A DNA stretch of 25,043 nucleotides from Candidatus Asgardarchaeum abyssi. Its GTDB lineage: Archaea; Asgardarchaeota; Asgardarchaeia; Asgardarchaeales; Asgardarchaeaceae. The stretch spans positions 1 to 25,043 of the forward strand of contig JBECUL010000032.1 in assembly GCA_040225955.1 (NCBI GenBank), read 5' to 3'. Both the position numbers and the translations under genes were made by a program. The notes beneath the pieces were generated by a model. The model had not been told where the DNA came from. It saw only the letters and a program-made list of their open reading frames with translations, and searched no databases. Shown here in pieces: positions 8,849 to 23,431 of the stretch. The first letter of the stretch is position 1, and each line of letters begins with the position of its first letter.

Positions 8849-9349
8849 ATGTTTAGTGAAAAAAATCAAAAAAGGTATATTGTTACATTAATACTGAGAG
8901 ACGAGGACGGGCTATATAATTATCATCTAGATAGATTACTTACAATATTGAATGATATAGGGCAAGCTAGAGTTTTAGAGAAAAAGCAAATACTTTTAAC
9001 TTGTATTGGTTTTCAATGTATCAATGCATTATTGGTCAAAATAGAGGTTTTCATGAATTTTTCTGATCTCTCTTTGTCTCTTGCTGGATTTCAATATGTG
9101 AAATTAGGTAAAATCAATCCATTTATAGATAAGGTTGTTGATATCGAAATTATTAGCATCATAGAAGCTGAGGAGAACCGTCCCTTATTTTATGATTATG
9201 AGCAACATAAGAAATCTGGTGCTGATACAAGAATAAAATTAGAAAGAAAATTAAGCAATGTTGCATTAAAAAGGTTATACACTATTGAGAGTGAACTTAT
9301 TAATACTGCATTAAAATATGATGATTTAGCATTAATGTCTCTTGATTAA
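8849..9349 (+). CDS. Hypothetical soluble protein
   Basis: 166-aa ORF with normal composition downstream of an AT-rich promoter-like region; no recognised motif. Confidence 0.6.
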   Translation: MFSEKNQKRYIVTLILRDEDGLYNYHLDRLLTILNDIGQARVLEKKQILLTCIGFQCINALLVKIEVFMNFSDLSLSLAGFQYVKLGKINPFIDKVVDIEIISIIEAEENRPLFYDYEQHKKSGADTRIKLERKLSNVALKRLYTIESELINTALKYDDLALMSLD

Positions 9350-9454
9350 AATTCATTGTTATTATTCAACTTTGAAAATTTTAATCTAAAATTTTCTCTT
9401 TTTAAAAAAAATTTAAATTTAATAAATCCATATCTTGATATTGGTGACATTGAG

Positions 9455-9910
9455 ATGGCAAAGGGTGGATTCTACTATTCAATAATAATCGGCGTTTTGA
9501 TGTATTATCTGCTATATTTTAGTAACTATGGAAAAATAGTACTTAATTACATTCCTAGCGTACCTATTTTACCAAAAGAAGTAGTTGTAGCGGCTCTTGT
9601 TATTTTCATAGCAGCAATATTCTCTGGAGGACCTATTGGAGGACTTATTTCTGGGTTGGTATTAGGTATAATTTTTTATGAATATAATTATTATGTTAAT
9701 ATAGCATTCTCTATGGTAACTGATATCATGACCCAGAATGTGGATTCTATTATGTCGACGCTATCAATCGTATCGGATCACGTAGTGTATTATATGCTTA
9801 GCTCTTCAGAGTATCAAATGTTTATTGGCATTGCTGCTATTGTTGGGTTGATTGCTGGAGTCATAAGTAAGAAGCTTTTAGGAGCTCCTTCGGAGACCGA
9901 AGAAGAATAA
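9455..9910 (+). CDS. Small 4-TM membrane protein (Gly-rich helices, acidic tail)
   Basis: ATG at 9455 with GGTGA SD is preferred over 9356, whose extension is AT-rich promoter-like sequence; four hydrophobic segments. Confidence 0.75.
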   Translation: MAKGGFYYSIIIGVLMYYLLYFSNYGKIVLNYIPSVPILPKEVVVAALVIFIAAIFSGGPIGGLISGLVLGIIFYEYNYYVNIAFSMVTDIMTQNVDSIMSTLSIVSDHVVYYMLSSSEYQMFIGIAAIVGLIAGVISKKLLGAPSETEEE

Positions 9911-9955
9911 ATTTTATTTTTACGTTAACTATTATTTCTATATTCTATATAATAC

Positions 9956-10012
9956 TTTATTATTAATAATAATTAATTAATATAAATAATATAATAATAA
10001 TTAATAATTTAA
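9956..10012. repeat. 57-nt pure A/T tract with AAT-type repeats and palindrome TTATTATTAATAATAA (9957-9972)
   Basis: No G or C between 9956 and 10012, directly upstream of the 10017 gene. Confidence 0.7.
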
Positions 10013-10016
10013 GGAA

Positions 10017-11246
10017 GTGGTTGGCTTGGCCAACCAGCTTTTTGTACAAACTAGAGATGTAGCTGTTGAAGTATGGAGAAATTGGAAAATTGCAGCTATC
10101 CTAGCGATATTTTATTCACTTAATGCTTTATTTATAGGAAAGGCCAAATTGTTTGCTGGCCATGGCGAGGTAAGAATGTTTATATTTATCCCTGCAATTA
10201 CAGCTGTTTGGTTTGGTCCAGTGGTTGGTGGCTTGGTTGGAGGATTTGGCAACCTATTAATAGATATAATTGATGATGTAATACTAAGCGGAGAGTCCTT
10301 AGAGATTTCCAACTTTATAGGCTTTCTCGCTAATCTAATCGGTGCGTACATAACTGGTATTTTACGTGACCCTCTTGAAGTTACAAAAGATGAGAGCATA
10401 ATCTCACTAAAACAAATAATAAAATACATTAGAAATACCATTGCAGCTATAATAGGAATGGGTGTAGTAACAGGTGAAATCATAGGGCTGGGTCTTTATG
10501 CTGCAGGATACTTCCCTAGTCCAGAAATAGGGTTTATACTAGCATGGGAGATTACAAAGATAAACTCTATGTTTCTTTTAATAGCAATGGTTCCAGTGCA
10601 GATTTTTGTCACTGCCTTTGAAAGGCATAGAATAAAAGCATATTATGAGCAAGCGGATCTTACTAGGAAACCTGTAATGGTTGAAGGACCTAAAGATTCC
10701 CCTATAGAGATAAAAAGATTTCATATAGTCGGCGGTGATGGTCTAGTTCAAGAAAAATGGGGCCTCTTAGAGATGGTATTAAAAAATAATTCAAATGCTT
10801 CTCTACAATATAGAATAGAGCTGAACTCCGATGACAAGATAGATCCATCAGTATCATATACAAAGATTTTGAAAAGTGGAGAGGATGATGAAAAATACTT
10901 TAAGATTTATCCGTTTGATGATGGAGTTAGAGAGATGGATATATACATCAAACCGTGGATGAACTCTATTTCTCTTCTAGAACAGAACTTTGGTAAAAAC
11001 CTTACATATCACTATAAGTATCGCTATCGTGTAATGGCACCACTTTCAGATAAGTTTCATGGTGTGATATCGTTTATTACAATGCTTGCTTTTATAGGTG
11101 TTACTATAAGTGCTTTACAATCTGTTCTTGGAACAATCTCCAGCATTAAGGCTACGTACTTCGGCTTAGCAATAGCTATTGTGATTGTAGAATTTATCAT
11201 ACTAATTGCGTATTACATGCGACTTAAGAGGAGGTTGAAAGGATGA
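10017..11246 (+). CDS. ECF S-component-like membrane domain fused to an Ig-like beta-sandwich and two further TM helices
   Basis: IPAITAVWFGPVVGGLVGGFGNLLIDII S-component signature; soluble beta-rich segment at aa ~230-340 (LEMVLKN...LKSGE...YP); two C-terminal TMs and a basic tail. Confidence 0.7.
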   Translation: MVGLANQLFVQTRDVAVEVWRNWKIAAILAIFYSLNALFIGKAKLFAGHGEVRMFIFIPAITAVWFGPVVGGLVGGFGNLLIDIIDDVILSGESLEISNFIGFLANLIGAYITGILRDPLEVTKDESIISLKQIIKYIRNTIAAIIGMGVVTGEIIGLGLYAAGYFPSPEIGFILAWEITKINSMFLLIAMVPVQIFVTAFERHRIKAYYEQADLTRKPVMVEGPKDSPIEIKRFHIVGGDGLVQEKWGLLEMVLKNNSNASLQYRIELNSDDKIDPSVSYTKILKSGEDDEKYFKIYPFDDGVREMDIYIKPWMNSISLLEQNFGKNLTYHYKYRYRVMAPLSDKFHGVISFITMLAFIGVTISALQSVLGTISSIKATYFGLAIAIVIVEFIILIAYYMRLKRRLKG

Positions 11247-12019
11247 AAATCGGCAGTACAGTTACACTGATTTTAGGATTTTTACTTTTAATTGTTGCAG
11301 CATTTGATTTCACAGTTGGTATTGTTACTATTCCAAGGTACCTTTTTGGCGTAATCTCCTTATTCCTGATAGTTGTCATAGTGGTTCTTTTATATCTAGA
11401 GAGACGTATGGAAAAAGTGATCTCTGCAGAAGTGCCTAGTATTGAAGAAATGAAGGAAGCAGCTCGCGGAAGAAAAGCGGCTCTTTCAATAATTCCTGAA
11501 GGTGTTTTTGAGGTTTATAAACCAGCTAAGTTGCATATAAAGATGAAAAATGTTACTGGTTCACGTGGAATGAGAATCTACTTCAGCAGTCTTGATTATG
11601 TTAATCCTAATAACATAATCCTATGGCTAGAACCTGATGAGAAACAAGACATAATACTTCGTGTAATACCTGTAGGTAAAGGAGAGCGAGAATTGGCAAT
11701 CGAAGTAAGGCCATTATTTGACGAAAATGGTAATTTAATACCTGAGGCCGATGCTGACCCTATTTCGTTTCAAAGCTTTAAATACAACGCAAAAGAAAGA
11801 ATGGTTGGTGGCTTGACAAGCACTCAAAGAAGCATTATAAAAAACATAGCAAAAGTAGCCGCAATTTTCACGGTCATCAGTGGTGCTCTCTTTGCATATT
11901 TCCCAGAGTTGGTGGCTAGTGCGGAAATAATAACCTCATTTGTTCCATTATTCATAACGTTACAAGTGCCGTTGCTGTACATATATTTCTACTTAGTAAA
12001 TAGGTTACCTATTTCCTAA
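11243..12019 (+). CDS. 2TM-Ig-like-2TM membrane protein, paralogous to the C-terminal half of the upstream gene
   Basis: ATGA overlap with the upstream stop; shared pattern L..KN...RI...S.D...P...L...E...P...G.RE..I...P. Confidence 0.75.
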   Translation: MKIGSTVTLILGFLLLIVAAFDFTVGIVTIPRYLFGVISLFLIVVIVVLLYLERRMEKVISAEVPSIEEMKEAARGRKAALSIIPEGVFEVYKPAKLHIKMKNVTGSRGMRIYFSSLDYVNPNNIILWLEPDEKQDIILRVIPVGKGERELAIEVRPLFDENGNLIPEADADPISFQSFKYNAKERMVGGLTSTQRSIIKNIAKVAAIFTVISGALFAYFPELVASAEIITSFVPLFITLQVPLLYIYFYLVNRLPIS

Positions 12020-12028
12020 TCTACATGT

Positions 12029-12928
12029 CTACTCTATTTTTATGTTCGGACATCGTTTCTTAATATAGTCCAATGACTGCTTAGCCCAACTAAGTTGCAA
12101 TTCAAAAATGATAGGCCCTTTGAAATTATGCTTATCTAGGTACGTTAAAAACTCACAAACTGGAAGTTTTCCTTCACCTAAAGGTATGTGGTCCTTTATC
12201 TCTACATAACCATTTTTCTTTATCTTATATCCGTCGTGAAGATGTATCTCTGCAATTTTATCATAGTTCCATTCAAGAAATTCCATAACATCATAATTTC
12301 CTGAGTAGCCAGCTAGCAAATGACCAGTGTCAAAACAGATCGAAGTATCTAACTCATCAACTATTTTTCGTGTATATTTAAATTCAAATTCTACATTTTC
12401 TATTGCCAATCGTCTTGAATTAATTCCTGTGGCCTCTAAGAGATTTTCCACACTTTTTAAAGCATTAGAGTAGAACATTTCATTTACAATATTTTTTAAG
12501 GCCGGAGGCCCCTCAATCCTAGAAAGCTCAGATGCTAAAGCTCCAGTGGCATGAATAACATAGACTTCTGGTGAAAAAATCTCAGCGATATTAATTATTT
12601 CAGCTAATGATTTAACAGAAGCGTCTCTTATATGAGGTACTGGGCTAGCGGGCTCTATGGACCACAATGGTAAATGGGCCGTATATATCAAATTCAGTTT
12701 TTTCTTAATTTCCTTTAGCTCTTCCGCTACCTCCTCTGTGAGGGAGTTTGGTATCACATAAGCCATATCTAAGGTAAGTTCAATAACTCTAAATCCATTA
12801 TCATATGCCCTTTTCACCAGATTTTTAAAATTTAAGAGACTCATTATTTCAAGGAGACTTACTTCGGAAGCAAGTTTTGTAAGCTCTATAAGGTGCTCAA
12901 GATCTATGGACGTGATGCCAAAATTCAT
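12029..12928 (-). CDS. AP-endonuclease-2/xylose-isomerase-like TIM-barrel metalloenzyme, possibly cobamide-remodelling phosphodiesterase CbiR-like
   Basis: IEL, YTAHLP, YVIH, IENV, ICFDTGHL, IHLHDG, DHIPLG and IFE metal motifs; ATG 12928 follows a GAGGTG SD. The CbiR assignment is tentative. Confidence 0.75.
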   Translation of the reverse strand: MNFGITSIDLEHLIELTKLASEVSLLEIMSLLNFKNLVKRAYDNGFRVIELTLDMAYVIPNSLTEEVAEELKEIKKKLNLIYTAHLPLWSIEPASPVPHIRDASVKSLAEIINIAEIFSPEVYVIHATGALASELSRIEGPPALKNIVNEMFYSNALKSVENLLEATGINSRRLAIENVEFEFKYTRKIVDELDTSICFDTGHLLAGYSGNYDVMEFLEWNYDKIAEIHLHDGYKIKKNGYVEIKDHIPLGEGKLPVCEFLTYLDKHNFKGPIIFELQLSWAKQSLDYIKKRCPNIKIE

Positions 12929-13139
12929 GTGCACACCTCACTATATATGTAACTTAGTAATAACATAAAAATTAATATATTCCTTAAAATTTGTTATTCA
13001 CAGCATGGAATATTGCAACACAAAAGTACAATAGTAAGCACATTCTGCCAAGAGTATTTATATGTAAAGTCTATGAAATATACATTAAGAGGCCCTATAT
13101 TCATCTGATCGCTAAAGTATCCAATAGAGGAAATAATTC

Positions 13140-18385: not shown

Positions 18386-18445
18386 TGTTCTCAAAGAATT
18401 TCATGCCTACCACTATTTTAACTTAAATTAAATAAGGTGAAAGAC

Positions 18446-19234
18446 ATGGGCGAAGAAGAAAAGATGATTCCAGTTTGGACTCCTGGAACACCAATCATTG
18501 GTGGAGTCCATATCGGACTTATCATTGCTTGGGTTGCAATAAAACTAGCTGCTGCTGCTATTCCAACTTTTCCTATTCCTGGTCTTCCTGGCTCATTATC
18601 CGCCGCCATGTTCCTTAAAGGTCTAACGGGTCCATTGCTAGGACCATATGCAGGCTTTATAGGCGGCTTGGCTTTTGGAATATTGAATCAGTTTATCTTT
18701 CCATATACTGCCTTTTTCGGTCCACTGACTTTCCTAACAAATGTTACTGGCTTCACTTTTGAGGGTCTTGCACTTTACCCCAGAAAGAAAGGCTGGATAA
18801 TTACGGTTATCTATTTCATTGTTATGTTGCTACTATGGTACTTCTATAAGGGTGGTGCTGGATTAGTTGGAGGAATGCCACTAGTCACATGGGAGCACTG
18901 GTTTGCAATTCTAATCCTAGTAATACCATGGGTTCGTAACTTCATGCAAGAATCCATAATTAAACGGGACAATCCTGCAAAGCTATTCATAGCGCTATTT
19001 TTGATTGGCTGGGTTGGATCTATGGCAAACAACATTATGGGCTGTGTCCTTGCATTCTATATGTGGGACTTTACCAATCCTATCTATTGGGTGCCAATGA
19101 TTCCATACTATGCTGCAACGGACATTCTAGCATCTATAATTGGTTCCATAGTAGGTACTGCAGTTTTAATATCATTGAAGCGAGCAAACATAAGGGTATT
19201 CATCGATGAGCTGCTGGTAGTAGAAGAAAGTTAA
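18446..19234 (+). CDS. ECF transporter substrate-specific S-component
   Basis: GPLLGPYAGFIGG signature, multiple TMs, directly upstream of ECF ATPase and T genes; ATG 18446 follows AGGTGA. Confidence 0.8.
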   Translation: MGEEEKMIPVWTPGTPIIGGVHIGLIIAWVAIKLAAAAIPTFPIPGLPGSLSAAMFLKGLTGPLLGPYAGFIGGLAFGILNQFIFPYTAFFGPLTFLTNVTGFTFEGLALYPRKKGWIITVIYFIVMLLLWYFYKGGAGLVGGMPLVTWEHWFAILILVIPWVRNFMQESIIKRDNPAKLFIALFLIGWVGSMANNIMGCVLAFYMWDFTNPIYWVPMIPYYAATDILASIIGSIVGTAVLISLKRANIRVFIDELLVVEES

Positions 19235-19237
19235 TTA

Positions 19238-19252
19238 TTTTTTTCTTTTTTT
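19238..19252 (+). terminator. Oligo-T tract (T7-C-T7), possible internal archaeal terminator
   Basis: Immediately after the S-component stop and before the ATPase SD. Confidence 0.4.
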
Positions 19253-19274
19253 ATTAAACTTAAGGTGTGGGTAA

Positions 19275-21044
19275 ATGAACAATACTGAGGAAAGAGTAAT
19301 ATATATAGAAAATCTATCTTTTAAGTATTCTGGCTCGAAACGGGAAGCACTAAAGAATATCTCTCTTTCTATTAACAAGGGAGAATTTGTCGCGATAATG
19401 GGCCCTACTGGTGCTGGTAAATCAACATTATGCTTAACCTTAAATGGAAGCATACCTTATATGATACATGGTCATTTAAAAGGAAAAGTCTTGGTGGATT
19501 CCATTAATACTCAGGAAACCCTTATGCAAAAACTAGCAAGTATTGTTGGATTGGTCTTTCAAAACCCTAACTTACAATTATTTTGTCTCGATGTAGAAAG
19601 TGAACTAGCCTTTGGACCTGAAAATTTAGCTGTTGAACGTGAGGAAATTGCAAGAAGAGTTCATGAGATTGCGAAGCTTCTTAGATTAGAAGACTTGCTT
19701 GAACGATCACCATCACAGCTTAGTGGGGGTCAAAAACAAGCTGTTGCCATAGGCGCAGTTTTAACTATGTTACCAAAGGTATTGGTTTTAGATGAACCAA
19801 CTAGCAATTTAGATCCCATAGGAACAAAGCAAGTGTTTGAAATACTGAAAAGGCTAAAGAAGGAAAAAGGAATAACAGTAATCATAGTGAGTCACAAGAG
19901 TGAAGAGATCGCAGAGTTTGTTGATAGAATAGTAATTCTACGAGATGGAGAAAAATTCATGGATGGGAAACCTGAAGAAATCTTTAGCGAGAAGGATATT
20001 GTAAATAAAACATTTATTCGTCCTCCACAAGTTAGTGAGCTGATTTATAAACTTATTCAGAGAGGATATGCATTTGAGAAAATACCAACAACAATAGATG
20101 AGGCAGCCGAACTCATTAGAGATTTTCTAATTAAGAATAATGTTAATGTTAACAAGAAGGTGACTCTGAACTCAAGCAATCAACAAAAATCTCTTGGAGA
20201 AAGCAGTAGCGTAAAAAATGAGCCTATCATAAAAATACGCAATCTATGGCATATTTATCGTGGTGGAGTTGTTGCAGTAAAGGACATAAACCTTGATATA
20301 TATCCTGGTGAATTTATCTCTATTATTGGACAAAATGGTGCTGGTAAAACAACACTTGTTAAACACTTTAATGGTCTTCTTAAACCAACAAAGGGCTTTG
20401 TAATGGTTAAAGGATACGATACACGTACTATGCAAGTTTCAGAGCTATCTAAATATGTAGGGTATATTTATCAAAATCCTGACGATCAATTGTTTGCAGA
20501 TACTGTTGAAGAGGAAATCGCATTCGGCCCTAGAAACTTAGGTTGGAGCGAGGAGGAAATTAAAAGGAGTGTTAACGAAGTTCTAAAGAGATTAAACTTA
20601 GAACATCTTAGGGACGAGCACCCCTTATCATTAGGACTTGGGGATAGACATCGTGTTGCAGTAGCATCTGTTCTTTCAATGAAACCAGATGTCATTATAT
20701 TAGACGAGCCTACAACTGGGCAAGACTTTCGAGGAAGTCGTGAGATTGTAAACCTAATTAATGACCTAAATAAGGAAGGAAAGACTGTCATTATGATCAC
20801 TCATGATATGTATTTGGTAGCTGAATACTCGCACCGTGTAATCGTAATGGCTCAGGGAGAAATTCTATTAGATGGTACACCAAAAGAGGTTTTCTCAAAA
20901 TCTGAAATTCTTGCAAAGTCTTATCTGTCACCACCTCAGATTACATTGTTGGGTCAGAAGTTGAGTGATGTTGGTTTCCCAAGTGATATACTATCTGTAG
21001 ATGAATTTTGTGATGTATTTGAAAGAATAGTTAAGGGTGGTTAA
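19275..21044 (+). CDS. ecfA: ECF transporter fused dual ATPase (EcfA-A')
   Basis: Two ABC domains: GPTGAGKS / FQNP / LSGGQKQ / LDEPT and GQNGAGKT / YQNPDDQLF / LGLGDRH / LDEPT. Confidence 0.95.
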   Translation: MNNTEERVIYIENLSFKYSGSKREALKNISLSINKGEFVAIMGPTGAGKSTLCLTLNGSIPYMIHGHLKGKVLVDSINTQETLMQKLASIVGLVFQNPNLQLFCLDVESELAFGPENLAVEREEIARRVHEIAKLLRLEDLLERSPSQLSGGQKQAVAIGAVLTMLPKVLVLDEPTSNLDPIGTKQVFEILKRLKKEKGITVIIVSHKSEEIAEFVDRIVILRDGEKFMDGKPEEIFSEKDIVNKTFIRPPQVSELIYKLIQRGYAFEKIPTTIDEAAELIRDFLIKNNVNVNKKVTLNSSNQQKSLGESSSVKNEPIIKIRNLWHIYRGGVVAVKDINLDIYPGEFISIIGQNGAGKTTLVKHFNGLLKPTKGFVMVKGYDTRTMQVSELSKYVGYIYQNPDDQLFADTVEEEIAFGPRNLGWSEEEIKRSVNEVLKRLNLEHLRDEHPLSLGLGDRHRVAVASVLSMKPDVIILDEPTTGQDFRGSREIVNLINDLNKEGKTVIMITHDMYLVAEYSHRVIVMAQGEILLDGTPKEVFSKSEILAKSYLSPPQITLLGQKLSDVGFPSDILSVDEFCDVFERIVKGG

Positions 21045-21888
21045 AATTAGTTCAAGAGGATATGTTGTTTATTATGCGGGTGACACCTTAATACACAAAT
21101 TGGATCCTCGAGCAAAATTAATAATGCTAGCTTATTTCATTGGCCTAGCTTTACTTTTCAGTAACCCCATTCATCTAGCGTTAGTCCTTCTAGCAGCGAT
21201 TCTGATTTGGTTTTATGCGAGGATACCAGCAAAAGAAGTGTCCCGAGTTTATAAATATGTCTATGGAACTCTGGCACTGGTTATTATTATCCAAGGCCTT
21301 AGTTTTCCAACTGGAACCGAAATTCTAAGAATAATCCCAGAGAATCCATTATTAGGAAACGTAGGAGCGTTGACCATAGAGGGTCTAGTCTATGGAATAG
21401 CAATCTCTGAAAGAATCCTAATAATGATGATAATTGGCCCACTGGTAATCTACACAACACCACTTGATAGATTAATCTTAGGAATGGTTAAAATGAAAAT
21501 GCCATACACAATTGCCTATATAATGAGCTCTGCACTCAATATACTACCAAGTGTCCAATTAGAAATAGCGACTATTATTGAAGCTCAGACTGCAAGAGCT
21601 TTTACAAAGCTGGAAACAGGTGGGTTTGTTGAAAGAATGAGAGCGTATATCCCGATATTAGTTCCATTAATAGTAAGTATGGCTAGAAATAGCACACAAT
21701 TATCCCTAGCAATGGCTGCAAGGGCATTTGGTGCATCAAAGGAAAGAACATTTTACCGAGATATTAAAGCTGAGACAAAGGATTACATAGTAATAGGTAT
21801 CATGGTTGTTACATTTGCTATTTTTGTCTACGCATACATAGTATATGGGTTTGGAGCATTTGACTTCTACGCAATAAAGTTCTTCTAA
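21037..21888 (+). CDS. ecfT: ECF transporter transmembrane T component
   Basis: IHKLDPRAKL and two ARA motifs (AQTARA, AMAARAF); overlaps the ATPase stop. Confidence 0.93.
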   Translation: MVKISSRGYVVYYAGDTLIHKLDPRAKLIMLAYFIGLALLFSNPIHLALVLLAAILIWFYARIPAKEVSRVYKYVYGTLALVIIIQGLSFPTGTEILRIIPENPLLGNVGALTIEGLVYGIAISERILIMMIIGPLVIYTTPLDRLILGMVKMKMPYTIAYIMSSALNILPSVQLEIATIIEAQTARAFTKLETGGFVERMRAYIPILVPLIVSMARNSTQLSLAMAARAFGASKERTFYRDIKAETKDYIVIGIMVVTFAIFVYAYIVYGFGAFDFYAIKFF

Positions 21889-21900
21889 ATGGTGAGAAAC

Positions 21901-22554
21901 ATGTTAGGAGAATTTCTTGAGTTCCTTTTAATAATATTCCTTGTGCTTCTCGGAATATACTTCGTGGAGCCTACCATAATAGCTAATATGATGAGGACCT
22001 TTAGTGGAATTCCTGCTTGGAGATCCCTAGCTCTAGCACTTTTTCAGAGAGCACTGTGCTTTGATTCTCCTGGAGCCTCTCAACTAAATATCATAGAGCT
22101 TAACTTTGGAGACATCTACGTAGTAGCATTTTGGCTGTTAACAGGTTTACTCTTTGGTTATAGACATAAAAGCATCAAGAATGTTCTAATTATAGGACTA
22201 ATAACACCACTAGCTACTGCACAAGTTTATATTATGATGCTTCAACAGTACACTCCTGATCTTTGGAATAGCTTTTCTCCTAAAATGCAAGAAACGATTA
22301 CGCACACCGCTTACATGAATGGCTTACAATTGAGTTTAGTCTTAATTGCAGGTTTACTAGCGATGGCAGTAGTCAGAAAAATAAAAATGCGAAAACCAAT
22401 GGCAATTTACATAATTCCTGAAGAGGAGAAAAAGCCACTATTAATAAAATGTCCAGCTTGCAGGAAAGTTCATTATTCGAATGCAAGATTTTGCAGTAAT
22501 TGTGGGACTCCCATGGCAGAAAAGGTAGAAACAACTGAGGAAACAACTATATAA
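21901..22554 (+). CDS. Membrane protein with C-terminal zinc ribbon
   Basis: About four TMs, then CPAC-x10-CSNC; ATG 21901 follows GGTGAG (ATG 21889 also possible). Confidence 0.75.
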   Translation: MLGEFLEFLLIIFLVLLGIYFVEPTIIANMMRTFSGIPAWRSLALALFQRALCFDSPGASQLNIIELNFGDIYVVAFWLLTGLLFGYRHKSIKNVLIIGLITPLATAQVYIMMLQQYTPDLWNSFSPKMQETITHTAYMNGLQLSLVLIAGLLAMAVVRKIKMRKPMAIYIIPEEEKKPLLIKCPACRKVHYSNARFCSNCGTPMAEKVETTEETTI

Positions 22555-22567
22555 TAGAGGGACACTA

Positions 22568-23431
22568 ATGAACATCGGATTCACATCAATGTATTTTTTC
22601 GAACTTCCAATAGATGAAATCTTCAAAATAGCTAATGAACTAAATTTTTCCTTTATAGAACTAAATTCTGAGCTGTATTGCCTTGAGTCTTCAAATAAGT
22701 CAGAGAAAATGATAGCTTCCGAGATTATAGACTTAAAAAATAGCTATAACGTAAATTTAGAGCTACATGCACCCTACGTTGACATTAACCTTTTAAGCTA
22801 TAATAAGGAAATTCAAAAAACATCTTGGAAAGAAATTCTAAAAGCTCTACATTTTGCATACCTAACAGAGATTGATATTGTAACTCTGCATCTTGGGAGG
22901 TTTCCATTTGGGCTTGAATTAAAACAAGATGAAAATAGTTTTCTTAAAAAGATATACCAGAGAGGGGTTAATTATCTTAAGAATATATTACAATTTGCAA
23001 AGACCCATGAAATTAAAGTTGGTGTCGAAAATTTGCACTTTTTCCCCGGTAAGTTTCCGAAATATCCAGAGGATTTTGAGATGCTTATCAGTGATATACC
23101 AGATTTAAAAATAACTTTTGATTTGGCACATGCTTATACAATATCTGACGTCTTGGCTGAGGAATTAATGAAAAGGATGCATGATAGGATTATAAACATA
23201 CACGTAAGTGATGTCGATGATACAACCAATGATCACCATATTAGCATTGGTGATGGTAAGGTCGATTTCTCTTTATTTTTTAAGAATATGAAAAAGTATA
23301 AGATTGAAGCTCCAATAGTAATCGAACTAGATGCAATAAAAGTTTGTGGAGATAAAATCTCAAACCTCCGTTATCGTAAGGATATGCTTCTAAAATCAAA
23401 ATCAAAACTTCTTAATTTTGCAAAGCAATAA
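22568..23431 (+). CDS. AP-endonuclease-2/sugar-phosphate isomerase-like TIM-barrel metalloenzyme
   Basis: IEL, LHAPY, VTLHLG, VENL, TFDLAHA, IHVSD, DHHISIGDG and VIE motifs. Confidence 0.88.
   Translation: MNIGFTSMYFFELPIDEIFKIANELNFSFIELNSELYCLESSNKSEKMIASEIIDLKNSYNVNLELHAPYVDINLLSYNKEIQKTSWKEILKALHFAYLTEIDIVTLHLGRFPFGLELKQDENSFLKKIYQRGVNYLKNILQFAKTHEIKVGVENLHFFPGKFPKYPEDFEMLISDIPDLKITFDLAHAYTISDVLAEELMKRMHDRIINIHVSDVDDTTNDHHISIGDGKVDFSLFFKNMKKYKIEAPIVIELDAIKVCGDKISNLRYRKDMLLKSKSKLLNFAKQ

Follow-up and report, generated by a model that had tools for sequence, protein, structure and literature searches.

An S-component fold joined to a duplicated Ig-like and membrane-hairpin module in a split or fused membrane protein of Asgard archaea

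How might the six-helix fold of energy-coupling factor (ECF) S-components work when it is tied permanently to a larger membrane assembly? The question is raised by two overlapping genes, here called A and B, at positions 10,017 to 12,019 of contig JBECUL010000032.1 of Candidatus Asgardarchaeum abyssi (GenBank assembly GCA_040225955.1), of which we analyzed positions 1 to 25,043 of the forward strand ("the window" throughout). A preliminary reading of the sequence alone had proposed that A is an S-component fused to an immunoglobulin (Ig)-like domain and B a coupled partner built around a paralogous domain, forming a ligand receptor or scaffold rather than a plain importer. We find that the N-terminal domain of A has an S-component fold and that the two Ig-like modules are paralogous, and the conserved pairing of the genes and their fusion in relatives make it very likely that A and B are two halves of one membrane protein. 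As to function, we lean towards an S-fold complex that does not topple in the membrane and acts as a receptor or as a carrier independent of ECF modules.

An S-component fold and two Ig-like sandwiches

The domain limits of both proteins were taken from hydrophobicity and from the secondary structure of AlphaFold2 models, and the locus is laid out as follows.

9911-10016, plus strand: spacer before gene A, 106 bp and AT-rich, read from the sequence
10017-11246, plus strand: gene A, 409 residues from the GTG at 10017 (open reading frame listing)
10026, plus strand: alternative TTG start of gene A, for a protein of perhaps 406 residues
10065-10649, plus strand: S-fold domain of A (residues 17-211), six-helix ECF S-component fold
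10674-11045, plus strand: sandwich 1, in A (residues 220-343), Ig-like (E-set, of macroglobulin (MG) / transglutaminase-C type), predicted cytoplasmic
11052-11222, plus strand: transmembrane (TM) hairpin TM7-8 of A (residues 346-402), with the invariant Glu392 within TM8
11230-11246, plus strand: coupling junction, with GGAGGT at 11230-11235, the ATG of B at 11243-11245 and the TGA stop of A at 11244-11246
11243-12019, plus strand: gene B, 258 residues, TM hairpin, paralogous Ig-like sandwich and TM hairpin
11255-11401, plus strand: TM hairpin TM1-2 of B (residues 5-53)
11441-11812, plus strand: sandwich 2, in B (residues 67-190), Ig-like, predicted cytoplasmic
11834-11995, plus strand: TM hairpin TM3-4 of B (residues 198-251), with the invariant Gln241

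In A, six helices (residues 22-200) are followed by a beta-sandwich (220-343, pLDDT 80-90) and two TM helices (346-402), and in B a sandwich (67-190, pLDDT about 88) lies between two pairs of TM helices (5-53 and 198-251), which is the layout that the sequence-only reading had given, together with the ATGA overlap of the two frames. The last helix of the S-domain, TM6, and the linker into the sandwich of A form a single continuous helix (169-215) in the AlphaFold2 model. At the junction (GGAGGT-7 nucleotides-ATGA) gene B starts within the stop codon of A, behind a strong ribosome-binding site of its own. The start of A itself may be the TTG at 10026 more likely than the GTG at 10017, since a Shine-Dalgarno-like AGGAAG (10012-10017) precedes the TTG by 8 nucleotides, homologues are 405-406 residues long and the ESM Atlas record of A begins at residue 4. 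The 106-bp spacer probably holds the promoter region of gene A. A perfect 8-bp hairpin (TGGTTGGC/GCCAACCA) followed by a T-run, at 10018-10036, overlaps the candidate start codons and might affect translation initiation of A.

The N-terminal domain of A has the fold of an S-component, as had been proposed, and is a divergent relative of PF07155 (ECF-ribofla_trS) rather than a curated member. The PF07155 hidden Markov model matches A at E 1.8e-4 to 3.2e-5 (22-24.8 bits), below the cut-off of 26.7 bits, which a relative (P0038) clears with 33 bits. Residues 17-211 of the ESM Atlas model of A align with a PF07155/UPF0397 cluster over 179 of 181 residues (TM-score 0.81 by target), and the canonical S-component of the same genome, encoded between EcfA and EcfT on another contig (C49), matches the N-domain profile of the family with hhalign at 94.3%, E 1e-7. 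Sequence searches of the PDB with three profiles or proteins returned no match even at E<=10. Like the ECF S-components RibU and UPF0397 (PF07155; also PF12822 and QueT, PF06177), the domain has six helices with both termini inside, an R-P start of helix 2, a GPxxG...GNLLxD motif and small residues in helix 1; in A these are A26, A27 and A30, with Y33, followed by GPxxGGxxGGFGNLLxD. A differs from those S-components in being twice their size and fused to a predicted cytoplasmic Ig-like domain and TM hairpin, in its obligate pairing or fusion with a four-TM paralogous partner, and in never standing beside EcfA or EcfT genes in the contexts examined. It is thus not a free-standing subunit of ~20 kDa, having 409 residues and being part of a chain of ~700 residues in most distant relatives.

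Across split and fused forms of the family the near-invariant positions of A are Y33, R53, G67-P68, G71, G76, G78-N79, D83, N106, G114, N140, N183 and E392. Seven of these (Y33, R53, N79, D83, N106, N140 and N183) are polar residues inside the S-domain helices, and their conservation suggests that the domain keeps a binding pocket. Another S-like fusion in the genome, a protein of 402 residues on contig C14 (L025:1402-2607), has an N-terminal PF12822-like domain (28 bits, below the cut-off), then one more hydrophobic stretch and an unrelated, Tyr/Trp-rich soluble domain of ~180 residues; the protein was rejected as a member of the family.

The C-terminal half of A and protein B resemble each other far beyond chance, and the two modules are paralogous. 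BLASTP relates them at E 7e-5, family profiles built from close homologues match with hhalign at 90% (E 1.6e-6), and profiles from deeper alignments at 97.9% (E 3.4e-13 over 165 columns), the deeper match spanning the sandwich and both following TM helices (A 238-408, B 84-257). Both sandwiches carry an R-x6-D-x3-P motif, and that of B also a conserved PLFDxxGxxIP loop; the invariant or near-invariant positions of B are N103, G109, R111, D118, P122, P143, G147, G190, Q241, P243 and N253. Two invariant residues, E392 in the last helix of A and Q241 in the last helix of B, align exactly. In structure, both sandwiches superpose with VIA on the same regions of solved proteins (7e1y_A 532-640, 4u48_A 1010-1120, 4kty_A 628-725 and 8cem_B 825-934), with VIA Z of 11-12.5 for A and 8.4-9.8 for B on these shared reference domains. 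The alignment of the two sandwiches and their structural superposability, both put forward in the sequence-only reading, are thus borne out.

The modelled fold of both sandwiches, which fits solved domains at a root-mean-square deviation of 2-3.7 Å over about 100 residues, is the generic E-set Ig-like fold of the MG, transglutaminase-C or CARDB kind. Fold searches with the sandwiches returned generic Ig-like neighbours only and no functional lead, and neither PF07705 (CARDB) nor any other Pfam family matches the sandwich regions of A and B, although one relative gives weak Transglut_C and TMEM131_like_N matches. The sandwiches therefore share the fold of E-set domains (CARDB, MG and transglutaminase C-terminal barrels) with no sequence membership, and whereas those domains are mostly extracellular or soluble, the sandwiches of A and B are predicted to be cytoplasmic and lie between TM hairpins.

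That prediction comes from the positive-inside rule. With the canonical N-in layout of S-components assumed, Lys and Arg were counted per loop across the alignments, and the mean was 16.5 in predicted inside loops against 3.1 in outside loops for A, and 7.5 against 0.3 for B. The loops flanking the sandwich of A are rich in Lys and Arg, as is the linker that joins the A part to the B part in fused proteins, which fits A ending and B starting on the inside. The charge bias thus predicts that both sandwiches face the cytoplasm, in agreement with the placement first suggested from basic residues after the preceding helices.

A and B as a pair and as one chain

The two genes travel together. In each of six fetched loci (L001-L005 and L044) A is immediately followed by a B-like gene of 258-320 residues, with flanking genes that differ and A/B junctions ranging from a 2-nucleotide gap to a 14-nucleotide overlap; by tblastn, B lies beside A in every locus long enough to show it, about 18. 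The conservation of the pair across genomes, a check that the sequence-only reading had named, is therefore borne out. At one further locus (L041:12-254 and 305-1489, genome G077) a B-like C-terminus precedes A, and the 1.5 kb that follow A showed no B; the genes may be ordered differently there or form a tandem array.

An exhaustive profile search of 1.84 billion representative proteins (E<=1e-3) found 57 representatives of the family, at least 26 of which are single chains of 670-741 residues in the order N-domain, C-module, B. Another 5-8 fused representatives (1064-1113 residues) add a Lys/Glu-rich tail of ~370 residues. The identity of the last part of the fused chains is clear from the C-terminal ~300 residues of one such relative (P0023:400-702), which match the B profile at 99.5% (E 3.8e-23). 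A maximum-likelihood tree built from the A part groups 18 of the 19 split forms in a single clade (support 100/97) and the tailed forms in another, with fused forms to either side of the midpoint root; the most economical history has a fused ancestor whose gene broke once, in the lineage to which the window belongs. Because A and B co-occur in loci and are fused in relatives, it is very likely that they are two halves of one membrane protein that form a heterodimer.

Modelling of A with B, the heterodimer of the sequence-only reading, gave an ipSAE of 0.37 (0.37, 0.33 and 0.43 in separate runs), against 0.00 for the best of three controls, with at least 76% contact agreement between runs and a partner pLDDT of at least 64. 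Of 80 solved complexes 58 pass the ipSAE mark, as do 2 of 110 mismatched pairs; with scores of 0.60 or under, only 7 of those 80 complexes pass it, and both passing mismatches fall in that range. These counts hold only roughly, since our own alignments were used. The prediction lends weak support to an A+B assembly, for which the fusion evidence gives a high prior.

Some variants of the chain were also seen. In P0014 and P0016 (L004:1636-3348) an acidic, Pro-rich tail of ~160 residues, predicted to be cytoplasmic, follows the last helix of A, and the Lys/Glu-rich tail of ~370 residues after the B part in P0046-P0051 is coiled-coil-like and likewise predicted to be cytoplasmic. An apparent second split after the S-domain (P0057 and P0060, about 200 residues) was rejected, since both sequences stand at the ends of contigs of 1-2 kb and diverge there, and probably reflect assembly ends.

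A division into fused and split versions can be likened to that of CbiM-CbiN and NikM-NikN, in which an S-type subunit depends on another, small membrane protein that is sometimes fused to it. CbiN, however, is not known to carry an Ig-like domain or to be paralogous to any part of CbiM, and CbiM and NikM systems are encoded with EcfA/T (CbiO/Q) genes.

Receptor, carrier, importer or scaffold

The S-fold is common to ECF S-components, 5TMR sensor kinases and MreD, and in receptors it is already known to carry cytoplasmic modules joined on behind helix 6 (Partipilo and Slotboom, 2024, PMC11109136). On the reading that we favor, by a modest measure, the ancestor was a single Asgard protein of ~700 residues with 12 TM helices, whose gene underwent one split that left two genes coupled in translation. 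Once assembled, the complex would present a six-helix S-fold domain with its pocket open to the outside, whose last helix would run straight into a cytoplasmic Ig-like domain; this domain and its TM hairpin would be duplicated in B, so that six additional helices, with two Ig-like domains at the inner face, would form a pseudo-symmetric scaffold. The S-domain would bind a small molecule as its relatives do and, because it is tethered and its TM6 held by six further helices, would probably not topple on EcfT as a free S-component does. Such a complex could be a ligand receptor ("transceptor") that relays its occupancy to the cytoplasmic Ig pair, which would serve as a docking platform; alternatively, it could be a self-contained carrier independent of ECF modules. 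The buried Glu392 of A and Gln241 of B, at equivalent positions in the membrane, would probably serve as a clamp of the two halves or as an ion site.

A bolder version of this idea, which we regard as possible and put forward tentatively, is that the family represents a fourth functional class of the S-fold, specific to Asgard archaea, in which a built-in scaffold replaces EcfT and there is no ATP-binding cassette (ABC) motor. The complex would then be a carrier that is coupled to ions through the buried Glu392/Gln241 pair and moves in an elevator-like manner, or a transceptor that recruits partners through the Ig pair and, in some lineages, through the coiled-coil tail.

The 5TMR-LYT sensors (PF07694) are alike in having an S-fold with a cytoplasmic domain after helix 6 and in the concept of ligand sensing by a domain that does not topple (Partipilo and Slotboom, 2024, PMC11109136). 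They differ in that A has no H0 helix (residues 1-21 are not hydrophobic) and carries small rather than bulky residues in helix 1, and in that A and B together have six additional TM helices.

Several observations count against a non-toppling receptor or carrier. The nearest relatives of the family are transport S-components, 25 of 33 N-domains matching PF07155 and 10 of 33 matching PF12822 at E<=0.01, whereas none of the 33 matches the receptor family PF07694 at that threshold. Neither A nor B contains a signalling output domain of the kinase, GGDEF, MCP or PPM kind, another difference from the 5TMR-LYT sensors with their kinase, GGDEF, MCP or phosphatase outputs. The AlphaFold2 model of the N-domain of A is poor (pLDDT 30-55), owing to a shallow alignment. 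Nine CbiQ/EcfT genes are present in the 2.6-Mb genome, any of which could serve as a motor. Lastly, helix 1 carries A26xxxA30, and nearly all members of the family have Ala, Ser or Gly three positions before Tyr33 and ~60% have a small residue seven positions before it, in a register not anchored to any solved S-component.

These points bear on the view that A is a genuine, if oversized, ECF S-component, which would dock on a shared EcfAA'T module and import a micronutrient, with B and the Ig-like domains as accessories, in the way that CbiN and NikN accompany CbiM and NikM. Its sequence affinity to PF07155 and PF12822 and the hhalign match to the genome's own S-component (94.3%) are what this view would predict, and the small residues A26 and A30 resemble the AxxxA of helix 1 that marks EcfT-docking proteins, receptors and MreD being bulky there (Partipilo and Slotboom, 2024, PMC11109136). 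Helix 1 therefore resembles the transporter state, but the register of AxxxA is unanchored because there is no PDB sequence match, and motifs of the small-xxx-small kind could just as well serve packing onto the additional helices of the family itself. The nine EcfT genes supply possible docking partners, and ECF operons lie 7 kb downstream of the pair in the window and 5 kb from it in locus L002. Against this, no ECF gene adjoins the A-B pair in the 10 contexts examined, the nearby modules have candidate S genes of their own, and neither the position nor the strand of the operon is the same in L002 as in the window; such proximity is unsurprising where 2.6 Mb hold nine EcfT genes. Nearly every genome of the phylum (296 of 301) has EcfT, whose co-occurrence with the family is therefore uninformative. 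Moreover, six helices and two domains hang on the end of TM6, at the face that meets EcfT in solved complexes, and a toppling of 90 degrees is hard to picture with them in place. On balance we consider docking on a shared ECF module rather unlikely.

The ECF operon in the window is tightly packed (18437-23431) and encodes a 265-residue membrane protein with no Pfam match (a candidate S-component), a fused double ABC ATPase of 589 residues and an EcfT/CbiQ protein of 283 residues, followed by a membrane protein with a C-terminal zinc ribbon (221 residues) and an AP_endonuc_2 TIM-barrel enzyme (287 residues). Nine EcfT genes in 2.6 Mb amount to an unusually large number of ECF modules.

The tails and the Ig-like domains lend themselves to a further explanation, in which the complex is an MreD-like structural scaffold that has no small-molecule ligand and anchors partners through its Ig domains and, in some relatives, coiled-coil tails. 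The relatives of 1064-1113 residues with their Lys/Glu-rich tail of ~370 residues and those with an acidic, Pro-rich tail fit this explanation, the Ig-like fold resembles docking domains (the appendage "ear", MSP and MG), and MreD is a precedent for an S-fold outside transport (Partipilo and Slotboom, 2024, PMC11109136). The conserved polar residues in the S-domain helices are, however, those expected of a pocket, helix 1 is not bulky as in MreD, and there is no conserved partner gene, so that we judge a purely structural role improbable.

As to substrate, the nearest Pfam family is of RibU type, and in L001 and L002 the pair stands directly downstream of nitroreductase-CofD-CofC genes, which could point to import of a compound of the flavin type: riboflavin, or the deazaflavin FO as a precursor of F420. 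The genome of the window would suit such import, having CofD and four CofE but no CofG/CofH and no lumazine synthase. However, PF07155 also holds S-components for other compounds, and neither substrate survives as a general role across the family. Import of FO for F420 was rejected since, of 27 other family-positive genomes, 13 lack CofD and 7 have CofG. Import of riboflavin was rejected since lumazine synthase, absent from 17 of 28 genomes with the family, is likewise absent from 39 of 50 without it, a distribution that tracks lineage rather than the family. We therefore hold flavin import by the pair to be very improbable.

The survey behind this comparison yielded observations of its own. 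Lumazine synthase (PF00885) was found in 14 of 14 control genomes, is absent from the genome of the window (93% complete) and is missing in 56 of 78 sampled genomes of the phylum, several of them 97-100% complete, so that riboflavin auxotrophy may be widespread in the phylum. The genome of the window (G000) encodes one CofD (C6:63865-64680) and four CofE (F420 ligase) paralogues (on C12, C3, C101 and C1), with no CofG or CofH above cut-off, a combination that could reflect salvage of FO or use of these enzymes outside F420 synthesis.

Distribution, novelty and neighbouring genes

The family profile matches 28 of 301 sampled genomes of the phylum, in 17 of 70 genera, and metagenomes of marine sediments and hydrothermal vents, from several studies, contain near-identical DNA. 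Searches of Pfam, NCBIfam and ESM Atlas features gave no family for B or for the C-terminal module of A, and in the literature searched neither the union of an S-fold with Ig-like domains nor any fusion of the S-fold in Asgard archaea is described. Taken singly, both folds are commonplace; what is out of the ordinary is their combination in a duplicated 12-TM architecture, split or fused, with Ig domains placed inward by charge bias. The family thus adds a new build to the S-fold, tying it permanently to a duplicated module of Ig-like domain and TM hairpin, and defines an uncharacterised, lineage-restricted membrane complex in the Asgard archaea, the closest known relatives of eukaryotes. With its one-gene and two-gene versions it offers a natural test of whether function is possible for an S-fold that does not topple on an ECF module, and the natural split point and fused homologues make the complex easy to approach.

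Across the loci compared we found no conserved neighbour genes of the A-B pair, and a search of the genome contigs for related loci found nothing. Neighbours in related loci include Ras/Arf/Roc GTPases, NAC and a tubulin-family gene. Two genes of 565 residues near fused forms were considered as a conserved neighbour and rejected, being mutually unrelated. The genes upstream of A in the window are the following.

8849-9349: upstream gene P0003, no Pfam or NCBIfam match
9356-9910: upstream gene P0004, no Pfam or NCBIfam match

The suggestion that these two genes (the second placed at 9455 in the sequence-only reading, here at 9356) belong to the system did not hold up, as neither has a homologue in 20 other loci carrying the pair and the 106-bp AT-rich spacer separates them from A. 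Downstream, a gene for an AP_endonuc_2 (xylose-isomerase-like TIM barrel) protein lies convergent just 3' of A-B in the window (12029-12934, minus strand), and the same placement recurs at L004:4392-5243 (minus strand), where A is only 36% identical; the convergent gene could represent residual synteny or a functional link.

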